A stretch of 64,000 bases of DNA from an uncultured bacterium. Its GTDB lineage: Bacteria > Patescibacteriota > JABMPQ01 > CAVVCK01. A program made the translations under genes and the position numbers. Below, piece by piece: positions 1,254-9,300 of the stretch. The notes below the pieces were generated by a model. It saw only the letters and a list, made by a program, of their open reading frames with translations, had not been told where the DNA came from and did not search any database. The stretch spans positions 275,050 to 339,049 of the forward strand of contig CAVVCK010000001.1 of assembly GCA_963746775.1 (NCBI GenBank). Direction: 5' to 3'. The first letter of the stretch is position 1, and every line of letters begins with the position of its first letter.

Positions 1254-3890
1254 TTAGCTAACCACTTCAAAATGACTCCCCTCCTCATCCTTCGTAACTT
1301 CTATCCTCGACTGAAACATATCTTTTAAGCTCTGAATATGCGTAATAATTAGAATCTTTTTAAAATCATCCTTAATAGAATTAATAGCATCTATGATATA
1401 CTCCTGACCAATACTATCCTGAGTACCAAAACCTTCGTCAATTACTAAAAGCTGCAATTTAGCTCCAGATCGTTTGGCTAAAAGTTTTGATAGAGCAATG
1501 CGAATAGCAAAATTAATACGAAAAGCTTCCCCGCCCGAAAACATTTCATAATCTCTATTGCCCTGTTCATCGATTATCTGTATGTCTAATGTTTCCTGCA
1601 AGGCTCCATCTGTTTTCTTTTCTCTCTGCGTTAAAAATTTAACCTCCATACAACCATCAGTCATTTTGGATAATAATTTATTAGCTTCTTCTTCTATTTC
1701 GGGAATAGCTGATTCAATAATCATCGCCTGAATACCGGTTTTGCTAAAAGCTTGAGCTAATTCATTATAAATTGAACTCTCTGTACTCGCTTTTTTTAAT
1801 TTTTTCTTTCTATCTTTTAATTCCGTCTCTTGCGATTTTAGTCTGTCTAATTTTTCTTTAACAGCTCCGTATTCTGATTGGATGCTGGATATTTGCATTC
1901 TTAATTCTTGTAATTCCTTGTTTTCTTCAATTAATTTAGACATTATAGAATCCAAGTTTTTAACTTCAATTATTAATTTTTCTCGCTTTGTCCTACTTTC
2001 TTCCAATAGCTTTTTCTTCTTTTCTCTGTCATTTTTATTTTTCTCTAAATATTCCTTATTACCTTTTTCTTGCTCGAGCGCCAAAGTTAAATCATTGTGT
2101 AACTTATCGTAAATCATTAATTTGTTAATCTGTACTTCTATATTTTTATGTTTATTTTCATTATAGATTAGTTTTTTCAACTCATTTTCAACTCTATCTA
2201 ATTCTTTGACACTTTCTAAATCAAAATTTCCTTTCTCCATTTCCTGCACTAAATTTTTATTTTTCTCTTTTAAATTTTTTAAATCTTTTTCTTTTATCAC
2301 TAACTCCTCTAAAGATTTTTCTAAATTATAGAACTTTCTTTCTTCCTCTTTCTGCTTAATAAGTTTCTGTTCTAATTCTTTTATTTCATTTTGTAATTCT
2401 AAAATTTTATTATCATAAATTTTTTCTTTTTCATCTAATTTTTTATACTCCTCTCTTCTATTACTTATTTCCTTATCTAAATCTAATAAAACTTTTTCTT
2501 TATGCTCATCACCTAATTTTTGATTGCAAGTAGGACAAGTGCCTTTTAGTTTTTTGATTGTTTCTATTTTTTGTCTTAGTTCTAAACCCAGAGCTTGAAT
2601 TTGTGATTTCTGTGTTCGAAGTTCTGTTTTCTTTTCACTGCCCGACTGCACTCTTTTAATATTTTCCTCTTTCTTTCCTTCTAATTTTTTAAATTCTGCT
2701 AATTTATTTTGAGATTCTTTTAATTCTTTTTTTGTTTTATTTTTATTTTTTACATCTTCCTCATATTCTTTTATTTTTTCTAAAATATTAGCCTGCTCTA
2801 TTTCAATTTTCTTTTTGCTATCAGAAATTTTATTGTTTAATTGATTTTTTTGCGATTCTAGAGAAAATTGCTTTATGCGTACTTTAGTTAAACGATCATT
2901 TTCTAATTTTAATTCTTGCAGTTCCCTATACCCTCTTTTAATTTCATTTCCCTTAGAAATTATTTCTTTTATTTTTTGAAATTTTTGTTCTTTCTCTTCA
3001 AATTCATTTTTTAAATTTTCAATTTCACTTTCTAATTCATCAATTCTAAAAGTTAAATCTTGAGTTTCTTTTTTCTTTATTTCTAAATTATTTCTTTTTG
3101 AAGTTAAATCTTCTACCTCTTTTTCTTTGGCTTCAATCTCCACTTGTGCCTTATCTAAAATTATTTTTATTTTCTTCTCCTCTTCTTCAAAATTCTCCTT
3201 TGAATCTAATTCTTCTGATAAACTCTCCAGTAACTGCTCTGAGCTTTCTTTCTCTATATCACGGCTGCGGCGTAATTCTTTGGCTCGCTCTTGCAATTGG
3301 TCGTAATACGATAGCCCCAAGATATCTGCCAAAATTGCTTTGCGCTCAATTGGTTTCTTAATAGTAAATTCATCAGCGTGACCTTGTCGCAGAAAAGCAG
3401 AATTTACAAAAGTATCATAATCCATACGTAAAATTTCAATGACCCTGTCTTGCGTCTCCGCTTTAGAATGTTCTGATACAGATCGCCAATTATCATTATC
3501 TATCTCTAACAACTGATTTTCTCCTGATCCCGTTCCTTCCGCCTCATCGGCGGACTTCGTCGCGATCATAAAATCAAAACTGCCTGAAGTAGCAAACCCA
3601 CCTTTCTTCTTTTTCTTCTTAATTCTTTTTCTAATCACTCTGTATCTCGAGCCTTCTAATTCAAATTCAAAATCAACCCACATCTCCTCGGTCCCTAATT
3701 TAATTAGATCATCGTCAGATTTAGCTCTGGATTTACCCCATAGTGCCCAAGTAACTGATTCCAGCAAAGTAGATTTACCTACTCCATTATTGCCACTAAG
3801 ACAAGCCAAATCTAACCCTCTAAAATCAAGAGGTTCTACTTGCTCACCATAAGACATGAAGTTGTGAAGTTGTAATTTGATTGGTAGCAT
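1254..3890 (-). CDS. sbcC: SbcC/Rad50-family DNA repair ATPase.
   Basis: N-terminal Walker A (GNNGVGKST), a very long coiled coil with a central CPTC zinc hook, and C-terminal signature/Walker B (LLVIDEGFGTQD). It is directly followed by sbcD. Confidence 0.85.
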   Translation of the reverse strand: MLPIKLQLHNFMSYGEQVEPLDFRGLDLACLSGNNGVGKSTLLESVTWALWGKSRAKSDDDLIKLGTEEMWVDFEFELEGSRYRVIRKRIKKKKKKGGFATSGSFDFMIATKSADEAEGTGSGENQLLEIDNDNWRSVSEHSKAETQDRVIEILRMDYDTFVNSAFLRQGHADEFTIKKPIERKAILADILGLSYYDQLQERAKELRRSRDIEKESSEQLLESLSEELDSKENFEEEEKKIKIILDKAQVEIEAKEKEVEDLTSKRNNLEIKKKETQDLTFRIDELESEIENLKNEFEEKEQKFQKIKEIISKGNEIKRGYRELQELKLENDRLTKVRIKQFSLESQKNQLNNKISDSKKKIEIEQANILEKIKEYEEDVKNKNKTKKELKESQNKLAEFKKLEGKKEENIKRVQSGSEKKTELRTQKSQIQALGLELRQKIETIKKLKGTCPTCNQKLGDEHKEKVLLDLDKEISNRREEYKKLDEKEKIYDNKILELQNEIKELEQKLIKQKEEERKFYNLEKSLEELVIKEKDLKNLKEKNKNLVQEMEKGNFDLESVKELDRVENELKKLIYNENKHKNIEVQINKLMIYDKLHNDLTLALEQEKGNKEYLEKNKNDREKKKKLLEESRTKREKLIIEVKNLDSIMSKLIEENKELQELRMQISSIQSEYGAVKEKLDRLKSQETELKDRKKKLKKASTESSIYNELAQAFSKTGIQAMIIESAIPEIEEEANKLLSKMTDGCMEVKFLTQREKKTDGALQETLDIQIIDEQGNRDYEMFSGGEAFRINFAIRIALSKLLAKRSGAKLQLLVIDEGFGTQDSIGQEYIIDAINSIKDDFKKILIITHIQSLKDMFQSRIEVTKDEEGSHFEVVS

Positions 3891-5256: not shown

Positions 5257-5438
5257 AAAATATTAATACTTTTATGTTATTTCGTTATCTTGTTATTTTG
5301 TTATTTTGATTATAAATTCTATCAAAAAGATTATTATACTACAAGAAAGTTACAAAAACTATAATAAGTTTTTTTATAATACTTAAAGCTTGCCTAATTA
5401 AAAAAGTTAGTTATAATAAGTTACATACTTAATATTAA

Positions 5439-5510
5439 CGCGGGGTAGAGCAGTGGAAGCTCGTCAGGCTCATAACCTGAAGGTCGCCGGTTCGAATCCG
5501 GCCCCCGCAA
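5439..5510 (+). tRNA. Initiator tRNA-fMet (CAU).
   Basis: CGCGGGG...CUCAUAA...GGUUCGAAUCCGGCCCCCGCAA. It is nearly identical in architecture to the E. coli initiator tRNA, including the C1xA72 mismatch and three G-C pairs in the anticodon stem. No CCA is encoded. Confidence 0.85.
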
Positions 5511-5598
5511 TGGATAAAATTCCAAACTGCAAGCACCAAACTCCAATTAAATTACAAATATTTTGGAATTTGTAATTTGTTTTTTGGAATTTTTTTGA

Positions 5599-5672
5599 GC
5601 CAGGGTAGCTCAGTTGGTTAGAGCACGAGAATCATAAACTTGAGGTCGTGGGTTCGAATCCCACCCCTGGTA
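5599..5672 (+). tRNA. tRNA with CAU anticodon. This is elongator tRNA-Met or the lysidine-modified tRNA-Ile2.
   Basis: Cloverleaf GCCAGGG/CCCTGGT acceptor (G1:U72 wobble), D arm tagctcagttggttagagc, anticodon loop aUCAUAa, and T arm gtgggttcgaatcccac. Confidence 0.75.
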
Positions 5673-5702
5673 TAGAAGTTAAAATTAAAAACATTTTACA
5701 AT

Positions 5703-5766
5703 GGAGCCGTAGCTTAGCTGGTTTAAAGCGATCCGATGTTACATCGGATAGATCGTGAGTTCAATC
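5703..5766 (+). pseudogene. Degenerate tRNA-Asp-like copy 1. The 5' acceptor and D arm match tRNA-Asp, the anticodon arm is replaced by a perfect 8-bp hairpin, and the T arm is decayed.
   Basis: ggagccgtagcttagctggtttaaagcg is identical to the first 28 nt of the tRNA-Asp at 6102. It is followed by atccgatg-tta-catcggat and then agatcgtgagttcaatc, a decayed form of agatcgtgggttcgaatcc. Confidence 0.55.
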
Positions 5767-5769
5767 AAA

Positions 5770-6042
5770 ATGAAAATGAAAAATGGTTATGTTTATATTT
5801 TAAAACGCTCTAACGATACCTATTATATTGGCAGTACTAAAAATATTAAAGATAGAATAAATAGACACAAATCTGGTAGAGTTAAATCTACAAAAAATTT
5901 ATTACCTATAATACTAGTTTTTTATCAAGAGTTTGATACATTATTAAAAGCTAGAAGAATTGAATATAAATTAAAAAAATTAAAAAGTAGAAAAATTATA
6001 GAAAAAATTATTAAAGACAATATCATTACAATGGAGCCGTAG
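5770..6042 (+). CDS. Small stand-alone GIY-YIG nuclease-domain protein (UPF0213/YhbQ-like). The track starts it at GTG 5755; ATG 5770 is more likely.
   Basis: GYVYILKRSNDTYYIGSTKNIKDRINRHKSG...E matches the GIY-YIG core (GxYxYIL, YIGxT, R..xH, distal E). It is about 90 aa, as in YhbQ-type proteins. Confidence 0.75.
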   Translation: MKMKNGYVYILKRSNDTYYIGSTKNIKDRINRHKSGRVKSTKNLLPIILVFYQEFDTLLKARRIEYKLKKLKSRKIIEKIIKDNIITMEP

Positions 6043-6093
6043 TTTAATAGTTTAAAGCGGTCCGATGTCCATCGGACAGATTGTGAATTAAAT
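6033..6093 (+). pseudogene. Degenerate tRNA-Asp-like copy 2.
   Basis: ggagccgtag + tttaatagtttaaagcg + hairpin gtccgatg..catcggac + agattgtgaattaaat. Relative to copy 1 the hairpin carries compensatory a:t to g:c changes. Confidence 0.5.
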
Positions 6094-6101
6094 ATTATAG
6101 T

Positions 6102-6176
6102 GGAGCCGTAGCTTAGCTGGTTTAAAGCGCCTGCCTGTCACGCAGGAGATCGTGGGTTCGAATCCCATCGGTTCCG
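6102..6176 (+). tRNA. tRNA-Asp (GUC).
   Basis: Acceptor ggagccg/cggttcc, anticodon loop cuGUCac, T arm gtgggttcgaatcccat, and discriminator G. No CCA is encoded. Confidence 0.85.
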
Positions 6177-6188
6177 TATTTTTAGATT

Positions 6189-6211
6189 ACCCGTTAATAG
6201 CGGGTTTTTTG
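6189..6211 (+). terminator. Rho-independent terminator after the tRNA cluster.
   Basis: acccgttaatagcgggt hairpin followed by TTTTTT. Confidence 0.5.
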
Positions 6212-6353
6212 TTTATATTTTTTTATACTGATAATCTTTGCTATAATGAATTTATATAAAATAGATTACATGAAATCCCAAACTTCATTCCAAACAAGAA
6301 TGTTTATATAAATTACTAATCTCTATTATTATAATATAAAAATAAACAACATC

Positions 6354-9300
6354 ATGAAAAAATTTAACAAAATCAAATTAGGAATTATTTTTGGGATTTT
6401 TTTATTAGTTTGTTCGTTTGGTTATTCTGCTAATGCTATGACAGATGAAGAAAAACAAGAATTAATAGAAGAAATTGGAGCAAGGTGCGAACAAGAACTC
6501 CGCGATGGTTGTCAGAAAGTTCTTGAGGACTTGCATATAGAAATTGAAGGTCCTATAGACTTTGAAGACCCCTATATCAGACATCTATGTTTTAACGCCA
6601 TAGATTCACAGGCCTGCTTTGATAAATATTGGATACCAAAACAAACCCCGGAAGAAACTTCAGACGAATGTGGAAACAGTACATGTGACGAGGGAGAAAG
6701 TTGTTCCAGTTGTCTTTCTGATTGCCCCTGTAGTTCAGAAAAAGTATGTCAAACAAGTGATAGTAATGCGGATACCAATGGTTGTATTGTATCAGCAATG
6801 GATTTAACAGTTTCCACCGATAAAAAAACTTACTCTCCCAAAGAGACAGTGATTATCCAAGGTAGCATATCGGATACAGAAGGTGGATTAGATAGTGCTG
6901 TTGTAGCTCTGGAAATAAGCAGCGACATACCATATTCAGCCACCGCTTCAGCCACTGCCGACTCAGCTGGTAATTATCGCCTCGAATTCCCCATTCCCCC
7001 AGACATCACCCAGGCTATATTTACGGTTTCGGCAACAGCGTCTTATTCCGGCTATCCTGATATAAGCAAAAGTACCAACTTCACAGTGGGAGAAATTGGC
7101 CTACAGCTGGAAAAGAATGCCGTAACCGGAAAACCATTTATTGGCACTGCCGCAGATGGAACCAGCTCTCTTGGTATTTCTATTTCTCTGCCGGAGTGTA
7201 ACGAGGGGTGTAGTAATGTAAAAATGAGTCAACCGAATATTGGTAAACTTGAAGGAGATGCTCTAGATACCATAAGCAATGTTAAACTAGATTCTACTGG
7301 AACAGCAGAGATTACCTATTATCCGCCAGATTATCTTACAAAAGATCAACTTACCCAAAATTTAGATATTCATCAATCAGGTTCTAAAGCCTGGGCGACT
7401 CAAGTTCCCTTAATTTTAACTTACACAAATGCCAGTGGACAAGAAGAAAAGATAGAATCTGAAATTCTTGTCTACCGTCCCCCGGTAATGCTGGTACATG
7501 GTTTTCTCGGCGCTACAACTACCTGGAACAAGATGTCCACCTATTTAAGAGGGGAGAAATTCGATACCTACCTGGGTAATTATGGCACTACTAATCAGTC
7601 TATTGAAGGATTATCCTTAATTTTAAAACAAGACATACAAAAACAAAAAAATGATTATGCTAATGCTGATATCAAGCTGACAAAAGTAGATGTAGTCGGA
7701 CATAGCATGGGAGGTTTAATTGCCCGTTATTATTCTCATGGTCTAGCTAATTACGAAGGTGATGTAAAAAAAATAATAATGGTTGGAACACCAAATCATG
7801 GCATTTCTTGGACCAAGAAAATAACCGGCAGTATCGGTGCCAGCTGGTACCAGACACACCAACTTCCGGCCGAGCAACTTTATTCCAAAAGTTCATTTAT
7901 AAAAACACTTAACAGCGGTGAGAAAAATGGCACTCATCTCAATCCTGATATACAATATGGTAATATATATGGGTTTCCCGATGACTGGATAGTCAACTCA
8001 GCCTCAGCTTATCTAAACGGTGTGGCCAGTGTAACTGAGTCTGATGTAAAACACTCTCCTGATATACCTTATGTTCCAAATGTAGCCATTACCGAGTATT
8101 CAAATACATGGGAGCAAGCAAAAAGCTGGCTAACCAGTGATATTTGGCGACCACAATTAAAAGATTCCCATATAGAAGTCTATAAATACCAGGGAGATGT
8201 CTACTTAGACAATACTAAGTTAACATCTTCTCCTACAAAATTTGATTCCTGGCAGAGCTTGCGAACTGGCCCAAACTCAAAGGCGACTATCCATCTAACA
8301 ATAGATAATCTTCCTTGGGGAGTTATATTTTTAGATCCGAATAGTGAAATTTTTCTGGGTTACCTCTCTCCCCAACTGGTGGAAGTTCGTCTCTGGCAAG
8401 GAAACGCTACCTTCAGGAGCAAGCAGGACGGTCACTTCACCGTACCCGTAAATATTAAGAAGTCTGAAAATGGTGAATGGTGGAAGTACAGCCCCCAGGC
8501 CGTAGTCACCGGACGAAATACAGAATTTACTGTTACCGCCGGAGAAAATATAGCAGTTCATTCCCTGGAAGGCGAGCTTGTTGTGGATACTCCTAATGCT
8601 ACTAAAGAAGGAACCATCCTAGCCGCTAACAAATCTGTAGCCATTAATGGGGAAGAAGTAGTCGCCATCAACCCTGTCTCAAAAGACGATTTCTGGTGGT
8701 CAACTGAAAATGACGACTTTTTAAATTCTACATCAACGGACAGCTGGCTTGATGAATTAATAAATATTGGCCAAGGTATAAAAACCAACCTGACAGCATC
8801 CATTACTTTCATTATCGCTATTATTTCATTGCTATTCTTTACCTTCTTCGCTGTTCTCGAATTTGCCCGGAAAAAAATTGGGATAGGAATATTAATGCTT
8901 GCCTTAGGACTTATTTCATTTTGTATATTTGCTGGATTAACTTGGTTTTTCGCTTCAGCTGATGTTAGTCCAGAAGAAACAAATTCAAACCATGGTGAAA
9001 CAAATAATGAGGAGACGGCAATTAATGAAAATAATAATTTAAATACTGACTCAGCCTCAACTAATACCAACACATCAGCCAAAACAGATTCCAACCCTAC
9101 TGAATCTACCAACACTAATACGACAACCACTACAGATACCACTCCAGTTGAAAAATCATCAACCGTAACAGTAGCTGACTATGGCTTTACTTTGGAAGTT
9201 GGCGAAGATCATGCCGGCAAAATTAGGCCATTATCCATTAGTCCAGGTAGTTTTGCAGAAGCATCTTATATTTTTTGCTATGATACTAAAGAAGAAAATG

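Follow-up and report, generated by a model that had tools for sequence, protein, structure and literature searches.

The 64,000-nucleotide (nt) stretch of Patescibacteriota DNA analyzed here (the window: contig CAVVCK010000001.1, positions 275,050 to 339,049 of the forward strand) carries, between a tRNA-Met and a tRNA-Asp gene, an insertion that encodes a GIY-YIG nuclease of 90 amino acids (aa) and bears partial copies of the tRNA-Asp gene in which a perfect palindrome of 18-19 nt, here called H, takes the place of the anticodon arm. The same arrangement of nuclease open reading frame (ORF), intact tRNA gene and H-bearing partial tRNA copy recurs beside many tRNA types in other bacteria. The reading that we prefer, and hold with slightly more belief than doubt, is that of a selfish element that spreads much as homing genes do, uses its partial tRNA copy as a portable homology arm and disables that copy with the palindrome; we infer both the cutting mode of the nuclease and the role of the palindrome. 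An earlier note on this DNA had proposed either a small element that inserted into, or duplicated, the 5' half of a tRNA gene, which broadly agrees with what we find, or tRNA-derived structured RNAs, which finds no support: each copy is without one acceptor strand, and no cloverleaf is possible.

An insertion into a tRNA operon

Relatives of the window were located through close homologues of the neighbouring sbcD gene. Two contigs whose SbcD is 85-86% identical to that of the window (L117 and L118; labels of this form denote homologue or relative contigs fetched for comparison) have the same order of tRNA-Met, tRNA-Met and tRNA-Asp, with a tRNA-Met to tRNA-Asp spacing of 10 nt versus 428 nt in the window, and at this site they contain no ORF, no partial copies and no palindrome. 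Because both carry the same operon as an empty site, window positions 5673-6100 are an insertion into the tRNA-Met/tRNA-Met/tRNA-Asp operon. A single uninterrupted tRNA-Asp in relatives had been set down in the earlier note as grounds for abandoning its interpretation; such genes were indeed found, but as empty sites they demonstrate the insertion rather than argue against it. The anticodon arm of the window's intact tRNA-Asp is identical to those of L117 and L118.

ARAGORN identifies three tRNAs in the window, all on the + strand (Met 5439-5510, Met 5599-5672, Asp(GTC) 6101-6177), which Rfam supports at 65-71 bits, the second tRNA-Met scoring 65.5 and tRNA-Asp 70.7 over the full model, with tRNA-Asp uninterrupted across model positions 1-71. 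One promoter-like site and one terminator bracket the two tRNA-Met genes, the insertion and tRNA-Asp, such that the nuclease gene is embedded in the tRNA operon; the identical promoter-like sequence precedes tRNA-Met in L117, L118, L120 and L121. The features of the locus are:

5390..5417, + strand: promoter-like site of the tRNA operon, TTGCCT-16-TATAAT (consensus scan, 10/12 matches)
5599..5672, + strand: second tRNA-Met, left neighbour of the insertion (ARAGORN; Rfam, 65.5 bits)
5673..6100, + strand: stretch from tRNA-Met to the intact tRNA-Asp, 428 nt, ~418 nt of it extra (comparison with L117 and L118)
5702..5730, + strand: pseudo-copy 1, 5' part, with the base before the tRNA start, the 5' acceptor strand and the D arm (positions 1-26)
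5731..5749, + strand: palindrome H1, atccgatg-tta-catcggat, in place of the anticodon arm (sequence, fold, family motif)
5750..5766, + strand: copy-1 remnant of the variable loop, 5' T stem and part of the T loop (sequence, alignment)
5770..6042, + strand: GIY-YIG nuclease ORF, 90 aa, Slx1/UPF0213 type (PF01541 match)
6032..6059, + strand: pseudo-copy 2, 5' part (sequence, alignment)
6060..6077, + strand: palindrome H2, gtccgatg-tc-catcggac (sequence, DNA fold)
6078..6100, + strand: decayed variable-loop/T-arm remnant of copy 2 (agattgtgaattaaat) and 7-nt spacer attatag (alignment)
6101..6177, + strand: intact tRNA-Asp(GTC) (ARAGORN; Rfam, 70.7 bits)
6189..6215, + strand: intrinsic terminator of the tRNA operon (terminator scan, 6189-6205; L118 has this hairpin after its tRNA-Asp too)

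The 5' part of tRNA-Asp is present three times, as first described: copy 1 (5702-5730) matches the intact gene (6101-6129) at 29/29 positions, and copy 2, one base shorter, is 88% identical to copy 1 over 43 nt, 6 nt upstream of the tRNA start included. Both upstream copies lack the complete cloverleaf and 7-nt anticodon loop of a functional tRNA, their 3' acceptor strand being missing and their anticodon loop replaced. The ARAGORN and Rfam check suggested in the earlier note yields one tRNA-Asp and leaves the upstream copies uncalled, so that these are not bona fide distinct tRNAs; over positions 5300-6400 at E<=10, Rfam reports the three tRNAs alone, with no match for the upstream copies or H and no intron family.

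H1 and H2 swap out exactly the 17-nt anticodon arm, between '..aaagcg' and 'agat..'. Exact replacement and palindromic character thus survive from the original description of a perfect 8-base-pair (bp) hairpin in each copy, but H2 folded as a single strand attains 7 pairs at most, with a 4-nt loop. As single-stranded DNA, H1 folds at -6.5 kcal/mol (z -4.05) and H2 at -5.5, compared with -3.1 for the real anticodon arm, which makes both hairpins roughly twice as stable as the arm that they replace. The motif CCGAYG-N1-5-CRTCGG occurs in the 64 kb at the H1 and H2 sites only, where shuffled sequences lead one to expect 0.

Decay of the T arms in the upstream copies is likewise borne out by alignment, the changes in the remnants being AT-biased. 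The copy-1 remnant (5750-5766) reads agatcgtgagttcaatc where the intact tRNA-Asp has agatcgtgggttcgaatc, and ends 3 nt before the ATG of the ORF. Copy 2 retains tggagccgtag up to the ORF stop codon, and its decay begins beyond the stop, with 4 substitutions and 1 deletion in the remainder of the D arm, all G/C to A/T, and 5 G/C to A/T changes over the 16 nt of its variable-loop/T-arm remnant when aligned to the intact gene. In the flanks of H2, 9 of 16 G/C sites have turned to A/T and one base has been deleted, while H2 itself is still a perfect palindrome, and its 18-mer is identical in two unrelated loci, L078 and L085.

The GIY-YIG gene lies between the copies, as reported, and is the single ORF of at least 40 aa within the 428-nt stretch. 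Its 3' end overlaps copy 2 through the stop codon TAG (6040-6042), which corresponds to tRNA positions 8-10. The start had been placed at GTG 5755, overlapping the copy-1 T-arm remnant; it is almost certainly ATG 5770, past that remnant, since the identical database protein is 90 aa long and homologues begin 1-6 residues before GYVYIL. The G+C content of the ORF is 21% against 33% for the window, and a promoter scan revealed no convincing promoter of the ORF's own. We infer that copy 1, H1 and the ORF form the live unit of the window. Copy 2 with H2 is most likely the relic of a second unit without its ORF, or a tandem junction, and resembles ORF-less H units that adjoin intact tRNAs elsewhere (L007, L013, L022).

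Several further observations concern the surrounding operon. From sbcD to the first tRNA-Met, L117, L118, L120 and L121 carry extra tRNA genes (His; Trp, Tyr, Thr; others) and a ~130-nt GC-rich conserved segment; the window has neither, and the locus has therefore been rearranged. In the same tRNA cluster L120 encodes, at 632-708, a normal-looking tRNA with the anticodon UCA (SeC according to ARAGORN), which may mean that UGA is reassigned or suppressed in this lineage. Between the two tRNA-Met genes of the window (5511-5600) lies a ~85-nt imperfect hairpin with an RNA minimum free energy of -20.8 kcal/mol (z -3.0), and similar sequence is found at the same place in L118 and L120.

A widespread family in two permuted forms

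A profile search of 1.84 billion cluster representatives returned 2,879 relatives of the nuclease at E<=1e-10. Record titles name chiefly Patescibacteria, but also Bacteroidota, Ignavibacteria and some metagenome-assembled genomes labelled Gammaproteobacteria. Locus anatomy was examined with tblastn and ARAGORN in a set of 117 loci, comprising 36 from genomes, 80 from metagenomes and the window, counted as one locus. The earlier note had suggested a search for the same GIY-YIG plus pseudo-tRNA arrangement in related genomes, and among these loci it recurs at many tRNA types: the neighbouring tRNAs include Ala, Val, Asp, Pro, Gly, Ile, Arg, Thr, Phe, Cys, Trp, Asn, Leu and Ser, and a partial copy of the neighbouring tRNA, bearing the palindrome nYCCGAYG-N2-3-CRTCGGRn, stands on the far side of the ORF.

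Two forms account for most loci. Form 1 (61/117), defined by an intact same-strand tRNA that starts -40 to +25 nt from the ORF stop, has the order partial copy (positions 1-26, H, positions 44 to ~60), ORF, intact tRNA; its commonest offset is -10, at which the ORF stop is the tRNA's own U8-A9-G10. In Form 2 (29/117), defined by an intact tRNA that ends -15 to +30 nt from the start codon, the order is intact tRNA, ORF, partial copy (positions ~17-26, H, positions 44-76). Here the end of the ORF is D-loop-like ('..GTTGGTTAG') and is followed by 'AGC(A/G)', with the palindrome 4 nt past the stop and, after it, the variable loop, T arm and 3' acceptor strand copied in full. The other 27 loci are mainly distant homologues or contig ends. 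Common to both forms is the invariant order of tRNA 3' part, ORF and tRNA 5' part; Forms 1 and 2 are circular permutations of each other around H.

An H-bearing copy is also found on the other side of the intact tRNA in about one third of loci. Among 140 distinct tRNAs in the loci, the anticodon stem CCGAU/GUCGG, which equals the core of H, occurs only in tRNA-Ile(UAU), in 8 of its 10 versions, and this tRNA is also the target of an entire Form 2 clade. Given the shared core and the targeting of that tRNA, H is probably derived from, or a mimic of, the tRNA-Ile(UAU) anticodon stem.

Some irregularities of the family bear on annotation. Many database ORF calls have N-terminal extensions of 20-60 aa, and one protein, of 214 aa, has the domain twice; read-through of pseudo-tRNA and palindrome, or fusion of tandem copies, is the probable cause. 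In L013 (449-524) a complete H-bearing tRNA-like copy is called 'tRNA-Stop(tta)' by ARAGORN. Palindrome centres of TTA, TCA, TAA and TGA can be misread as suppressor anticodons and are a possible source of false suppressor tRNAs in these phyla. One ORF clade (L006, L011, L014, L058/L059, L084, L115) has a second class of hairpin, AGCCGAC-N6-7-GTCGGCT, often paired with a CCCCGACG... hairpin and located in the D loop of the partial copy, where the anticodon arm is not replaced.

The partial copy travels with the ORF

Partial copies are mostly identical to the adjacent tRNA (26/26 in many loci). In several loci, by contrast, it is the tRNA found with the closest relatives of the ORF, not the neighbouring one, that the partial copy matches. 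That of L109 agrees with the tRNA-Ile of L104 at 31/31 positions and with L075 at 29/31, but with its own neighbour at only 15/31, and the L109 ORF is nearest to that of L075, which bears the L104-type tRNA. Similarly, the partial copy of L072 is of the L013/L086/L092 type, and the L072 ORF is 81-82% identical to theirs. Foreign-type partial copies occur likewise in the Form 1 loci L094, L080, L103 and L067, that of L094 having the D arm and variable loop of an L012-type tRNA-Pro. These sequence matches show that the partial copy can be foreign-type, and hence that it moves together with the ORF.

The adjacent intact tRNA is internally consistent in the loci with foreign copies, where no conversion tracts into the target were seen; the element is therefore added at the boundary of the tRNA gene, and the gene is not rewritten. 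For 55 of 90 ORFs the nearest non-identical neighbour is associated with the same amino-acid type. ORF clades thus track tRNA type with occasional switches, and both forms are found inside single clades.

Two candidate mechanisms were set aside. A 60-nt staggered cut giving a target-site duplication is rejected as a general mechanism since partial copies can be foreign-type. A double-strand break within the anticodon arm followed by simple two-arm repair cannot yield L109 or L094, because in these loci the adjacent tRNA and the partial copy are each of a single type throughout, and the two types differ.

A minimal Slx1-like nuclease

The ORF product matches Pfam PF01541 at 56.1 bits against a cut-off of 22.6 (E 4.8e-15), confirming the GIY-YIG assignment. 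Across 32 homologues Y9, Y19 and E65 are invariant and R29 and H33 are conserved in at least 90%; all of these are present in the window ORF, as is G21, and with these six residues invariant or nearly so the nuclease is likely active. The homologues also retain a basic C-terminal helix, which in the window protein is a short one and all that follows E65, and their alignment has no conserved C-terminal Asn. The AlphaFold2 model (pLDDT 89.6) is a bare single domain of three strands and three helices, and the Pfam search of the window ORF gave nothing beyond PF01541, with no separate DNA-binding module of the kind present in I-TevI and Seg proteins. A sequence search of known structures returned 1ZG2 (E 1.9e-7) and 1YWL (6.2e-5), while Foldseek ranked 1ZG2 first, then Slx1 (7CQ3, 6SEH, 4XLG), then 1YWL, with I-TevI at E=1.5. 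By sequence and model, the protein is a minimal GIY-YIG nuclease of Slx1/UPF0213 type with conserved catalytic residues.

NCBIfam, PADLOC and PHROGs gave weak generic GIY-YIG matches only, with no defence system or named family; no relatives were found among IMG/VR viral contigs, and phage and plasmid records contain only distant yazA-type genes of 33-37% identity. In Bacillus, Radiobacillus and Listeria (NZ_AP028965.1, NZ_CP088021.1, NZ_LR134402.1) yazA abuts or overlaps trmNF, the gene for the tRNA1(Val) adenine-37 N6-methyltransferase, an adjacency that links the wider family to the tRNA anticodon loop. Prokaryotic Slx1-like proteins were described in a 2006 survey of the superfamily as a vertically inherited, repair-type lineage with fusions to a TrmH-like methyltransferase and to COG4123, and all selfish GIY-YIG proteins then known belonged to the UvrC lineage (PMC1564403).

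A proposed homing-like mechanism

As with a free-standing homing endonuclease gene, the ORF lies outside any intron or intein and is present in the window but absent from the corresponding site of L117 and L118. Its conserved active site and its horizontal transfer among orthologous tRNA genes likewise resemble such a gene. In the mechanism that we propose, the nuclease would break or nick an unoccupied tRNA gene. The cut would probably be structure-directed, not read from a long sequence, a preference that rests on the Slx1-like fold, the lack of a DNA-binding domain and insertions situated exactly at tRNA gene boundaries. Host recombination would then repair the break from the occupied copy. 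Since DNA outside the tRNA genes is not conserved between genomes, the element would have to bring its own second homology arm, and this would be the partial tRNA copy at its far end. Lacking one acceptor strand and the anticodon arm, that copy could not make a tRNA and would presumably be no substrate for the nuclease; sharing only split repeats of 26 nt and ~15 nt with the intact gene, it would also make loss of the ORF slower. Form 1 or Form 2 may arise when a circular or tandem intermediate recombines by a single crossover on one or the other side of H. The position of the ORF within the tRNA operon and the lack of a convincing promoter of its own suggest expression from the operon's precursor transcript; after tRNA processing of this transcript, the ORF message would be leaderless in Form 2 and would have no stop codon in the -10 class of Form 1. 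We count as signs of a selfish life cycle the ORFs that are truncated (L041, L042) or in tandem (L024, L052), the ORF-less H units, window copy 2 among them, the tracking of tRNA type by ORF clades with its occasional switches, and the low G+C content of the ORF.

More tentatively, and with distinctly more doubt than belief, a bare Slx1-like nuclease that recognizes DNA structure, combined with a portable hairpin-bearing homology arm, may represent a new principle of mobile-element targeting. The structure recognized could be the base of the folded tRNA-gene strand or a four-way junction, in which an H-bearing copy would pair with the tRNA gene and both H and the anticodon arm would extrude as hairpins. 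In a sharper variant, H would mimic the tRNA-Ile(UAU) anticodon stem-loop without being cleavable, as the element's immunity or regulatory site.

The palindrome and competing explanations

Alignment of 51 distinct versions of H gives nYCCGAYG, a centre of 2-3 nt and CRTCGGRn. Pairing holds in 97.8% of cells across the 51 hairpins, with covariation at pairs 1, 2 and 7, all four Watson-Crick types at pair 1 and a covariation score that 0 of 500 shuffles reached, figures to be read with the caveat that the 51 sequences were gathered with a pattern demanding pairing. The unbiased control took the distinct Form 1 loci whose 5' copy is well defined, 22 in number; in 19 of them a perfect CCG hairpin of 6 bp or more begins right after position 26. 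The core of H is conserved from Patescibacteria to Bacteroidota though ORF identity drops to ~40%. The earlier note had regarded the single a:t to g:c difference between the window palindromes as a compensatory change; H1 and H2 need not descend from one another, and it is the family-wide covariation that carries the argument instead. The hairpin is actively kept, as that covariation and the intactness of window H2 amid decay indicate, which upholds one half of the suggested structural selection, but what is maintained could equally be a palindrome at the DNA level. Template-switch correction of quasi-palindromes is a known mutational process, and it and selection are both candidates for the maintenance of H2.

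The most serious competitor is an RNA-level module. There, the GIY-YIG protein would cut tRNA (for example in the anticodon loop) and the transcribed H fragment would be an uncleavable decoy, antitoxin or autoregulatory site, the whole being an addiction-type selfish unit that reaches tRNA genes via ordinary recombination. The core CCGAY/RTCGG, unique to tRNA-Ile(UAU) among the 140 tRNAs, suits such a module down to the U-G pair of imperfect H, and H always lies near the ORF on the transcribed strand of the operon. Two asymmetries that hint at some sense-strand effect suit it as well: transition intermediates are T-G over C-A by 11 to 3 on the sense strand, and the loop is GA against its complement TC by 8 to 1. 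The yazA-type relatives next to the tRNA1(Val) m6A37 methyltransferase gene and the reported TrmH fusion (PMC1564403) point the same way. Judged on its sequence, however, H resembles a DNA palindrome more than it does a functional RNA hairpin. Nearly all pairs are Watson-Crick (G-U in ~2% of cells), many loops have just 2 nt, and the centre is mostly TA, GA or T-N-A, so that the symmetry often extends through the 'loop', unlike in functional RNA hairpins; the middle base of T-N-A is strand-symmetric (TTA 9 versus TAA 8, TCA 6 versus TGA 6). Moreover, the same H stands beside very different tRNAs without mimicking the local one, the fragments are unable to fold as tRNA, and an RNA target leaves boundary-exact insertions with partial duplications unexplained. 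We consider the RNA-level module improbable.

Alternatively, the palindrome itself could be the mobile unit, a GC-rich hairpin mini-element that invades hairpin positions of tRNA-gene copies and is mobilized in trans by the nuclease or merely neighbours it. H or related CCGAC hairpins replace T arms or occupy D loops of partial copies in L005, L006, L014, L058, L065, L072 and L091, and several hairpins are stacked in one copy in L038, L065 and L116, as would be expected of such an element. The partial tRNA-Pro copy of L007 is also in keeping with it: at 3595-3607 the inner T arm is swapped for 13 nt (cccgcaatgcggg) identical to the core of a terminator hairpin ~40 nt downstream (~3640-3655). 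H is nevertheless not dispersed. The window has 2 copies in 64 kb, both at the ORF, and of 128 H palindromes counted in the 389 kb fetched, 79 are no more than 60 nt from an ORF boundary, while 118 lie within 400 nt of an ORF and 10 beyond; in addition, H subtype goes with ORF clade, and the intact tRNA is never disrupted by H. These distributions make a mobile palindrome highly unlikely.

Ordinary decay of a tandem tRNA-Asp duplicate beside an unrelated small gene would account for the AT-biased changes in copy 2 and in both T-arm remnants, but is scarcely credible: it is already refuted by recurrence of the architecture beside more than 12 tRNA types, and it is at odds with the conserved palindrome sequence, the exact replacement of the anticodon arm, H2 standing intact amid decayed flanks and the empty sites in relatives. 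Attachment-site remnants of an integrase-type island or prophage have virtually no claim, since even though tRNA genes are classic integration sites that retain partial tRNA duplicates, the ~418 nt of extra DNA encode only the 90-aa nuclease and no recombinase, the window duplicates the 5' part of the tRNA and not its 3' end, the palindrome goes unexplained and IMG/VR holds no relatives.

Other candidates were rejected on specific grounds. Had the window layout arisen by cutting and ligation at the midpoint of H, H1 and H2 would be hybrids with mismatched outer pairs (a:t, g:c), and terminal inverted repeats made of half-palindromes are ruled out by the same mismatch. An IS200/IS605-type transposon does not fit a locus with no HUH (TnpA) ORF and a GIY-YIG protein as its sole product, nor does a group I intron in the tRNA gene, as tRNA-Asp is continuous and no intron model matches at 5300-6400 (E<=10).

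The homing-like selfish element, too, faces difficulties. A passive disabling patch does not account for the conservation of H sequence beyond pairing, and the identity of the H core with the tRNA-Ile(UAU) stem may reflect mimicry instead of descent; taken together, conservation and identity call for a specific reader, which could be the nuclease, acting on DNA or RNA. The L007 swap suggests hairpin-for-hairpin exchange as a separate process. Under a simple model the two-sided H copies demand two events, and adaptation of the H flanks to a new tRNA type is left unexplained. The neighbouring intact tRNA keeps an unchanged anticodon arm, so an occupied locus is not obviously immune if it is the tRNA gene that the nuclease reads. 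Gain/loss polarity at the window locus depends on two empty relatives, and with canonical members beside or fused to tRNA-modifying enzymes an RNA substrate is possible.

Relation to known elements and significance

The closest parallels to the window element are free-standing phage GIY-YIG genes such as T4 segB, which is likewise a small intron-free GIY-YIG ORF among tRNA genes (PMC2330249). Both vary in presence between relatives, and both presumably spread via break repair. Seg proteins and I-TevI, however, belong to the homing-endonuclease/UvrC lineage and have DNA-binding modules, whereas the window ORF is a bare Slx1-like domain to which I-TevI is only a marginal structural match; Seg genes have no partial tRNA copy and no palindrome, and they reside in phages while the window family is chromosomal in bacteria. 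By both sequence and structure the best matches are instead Slx1 and UPF0213 (YhbQ, YazA; 1ZG2, 1YWL), which share the minimal domain and the absence of the UvrC-lineage C-terminal Asn. Eukaryotic Slx1 is a structure-specific nuclease for branched DNA, and where canonical yazA lies beside a tRNA methyltransferase gene, the ORF of the window family lies beside a tRNA gene; for UPF0213, no mobility, tRNA-gene adjacency or associated palindrome has been reported.

Integrase islands and prophages resemble the window element in targeting tRNA genes and restoring an intact tRNA through a partial copy, but they encode a tyrosine or serine recombinase and duplicate the tRNA 3' end, whereas the window family has no recombinase, duplicates either end and swaps the anticodon arm. 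Yeast mitochondrial GC clusters and the palindromic repeats of Volvox (PMC2670323) are, like H, short GC-rich palindromes at structured RNA genes in AT-rich genomes; they are dispersed in many copies and tied to no one ORF, while H is confined to the nuclease unit. Group I introns of Patescibacteria are also selfish insertions at tRNA genes, including tRNA-Asp, but sit inside the anticodon loop and are spliced out (PMC13011429), unlike the insertion beside the uninterrupted window tRNA. Only group I introns are treated in a 2026 survey of such insertions in the tRNA genes of Patescibacteria, which never mentions GIY-YIG (PMC13011429), and we found no description of the nuclease, palindrome and tRNA arrangement in full-text searches that left most subscription journals out of reach. 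The homing-type selfish nuclease gene is a known kind of element, and what is new is an Slx1-like nuclease, a portable disabled tRNA homology arm and a conserved palindrome.

Annotation is affected: programs can mistake H-bearing copies for suppressor tRNAs, ORF calls run into pseudo-tRNA, and the ORF stop is often supplied by tRNA positions 8-10. A 90-aa nuclease whose action we take to be structure-directed, with an 18-nt partner palindrome, is easily tested and might serve as a tool. If structure recognition is true, a unit of ~400 bp would be able to colonize almost any tRNA gene in any genome. If the homing-like reading is true, the family would constitute a widespread class of very small selfish elements, with thousands of protein clusters mostly in Patescibacteria and Bacteroidota, whose target is a short conserved gene with no conserved flanks and whose homology arm is a disabled copy of that target. 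It would also provide the first biological context for the bacterial Slx1/UPF0213 nucleases, a group that had been regarded as repair proteins passed on vertically and whose role has stayed open over two decades.

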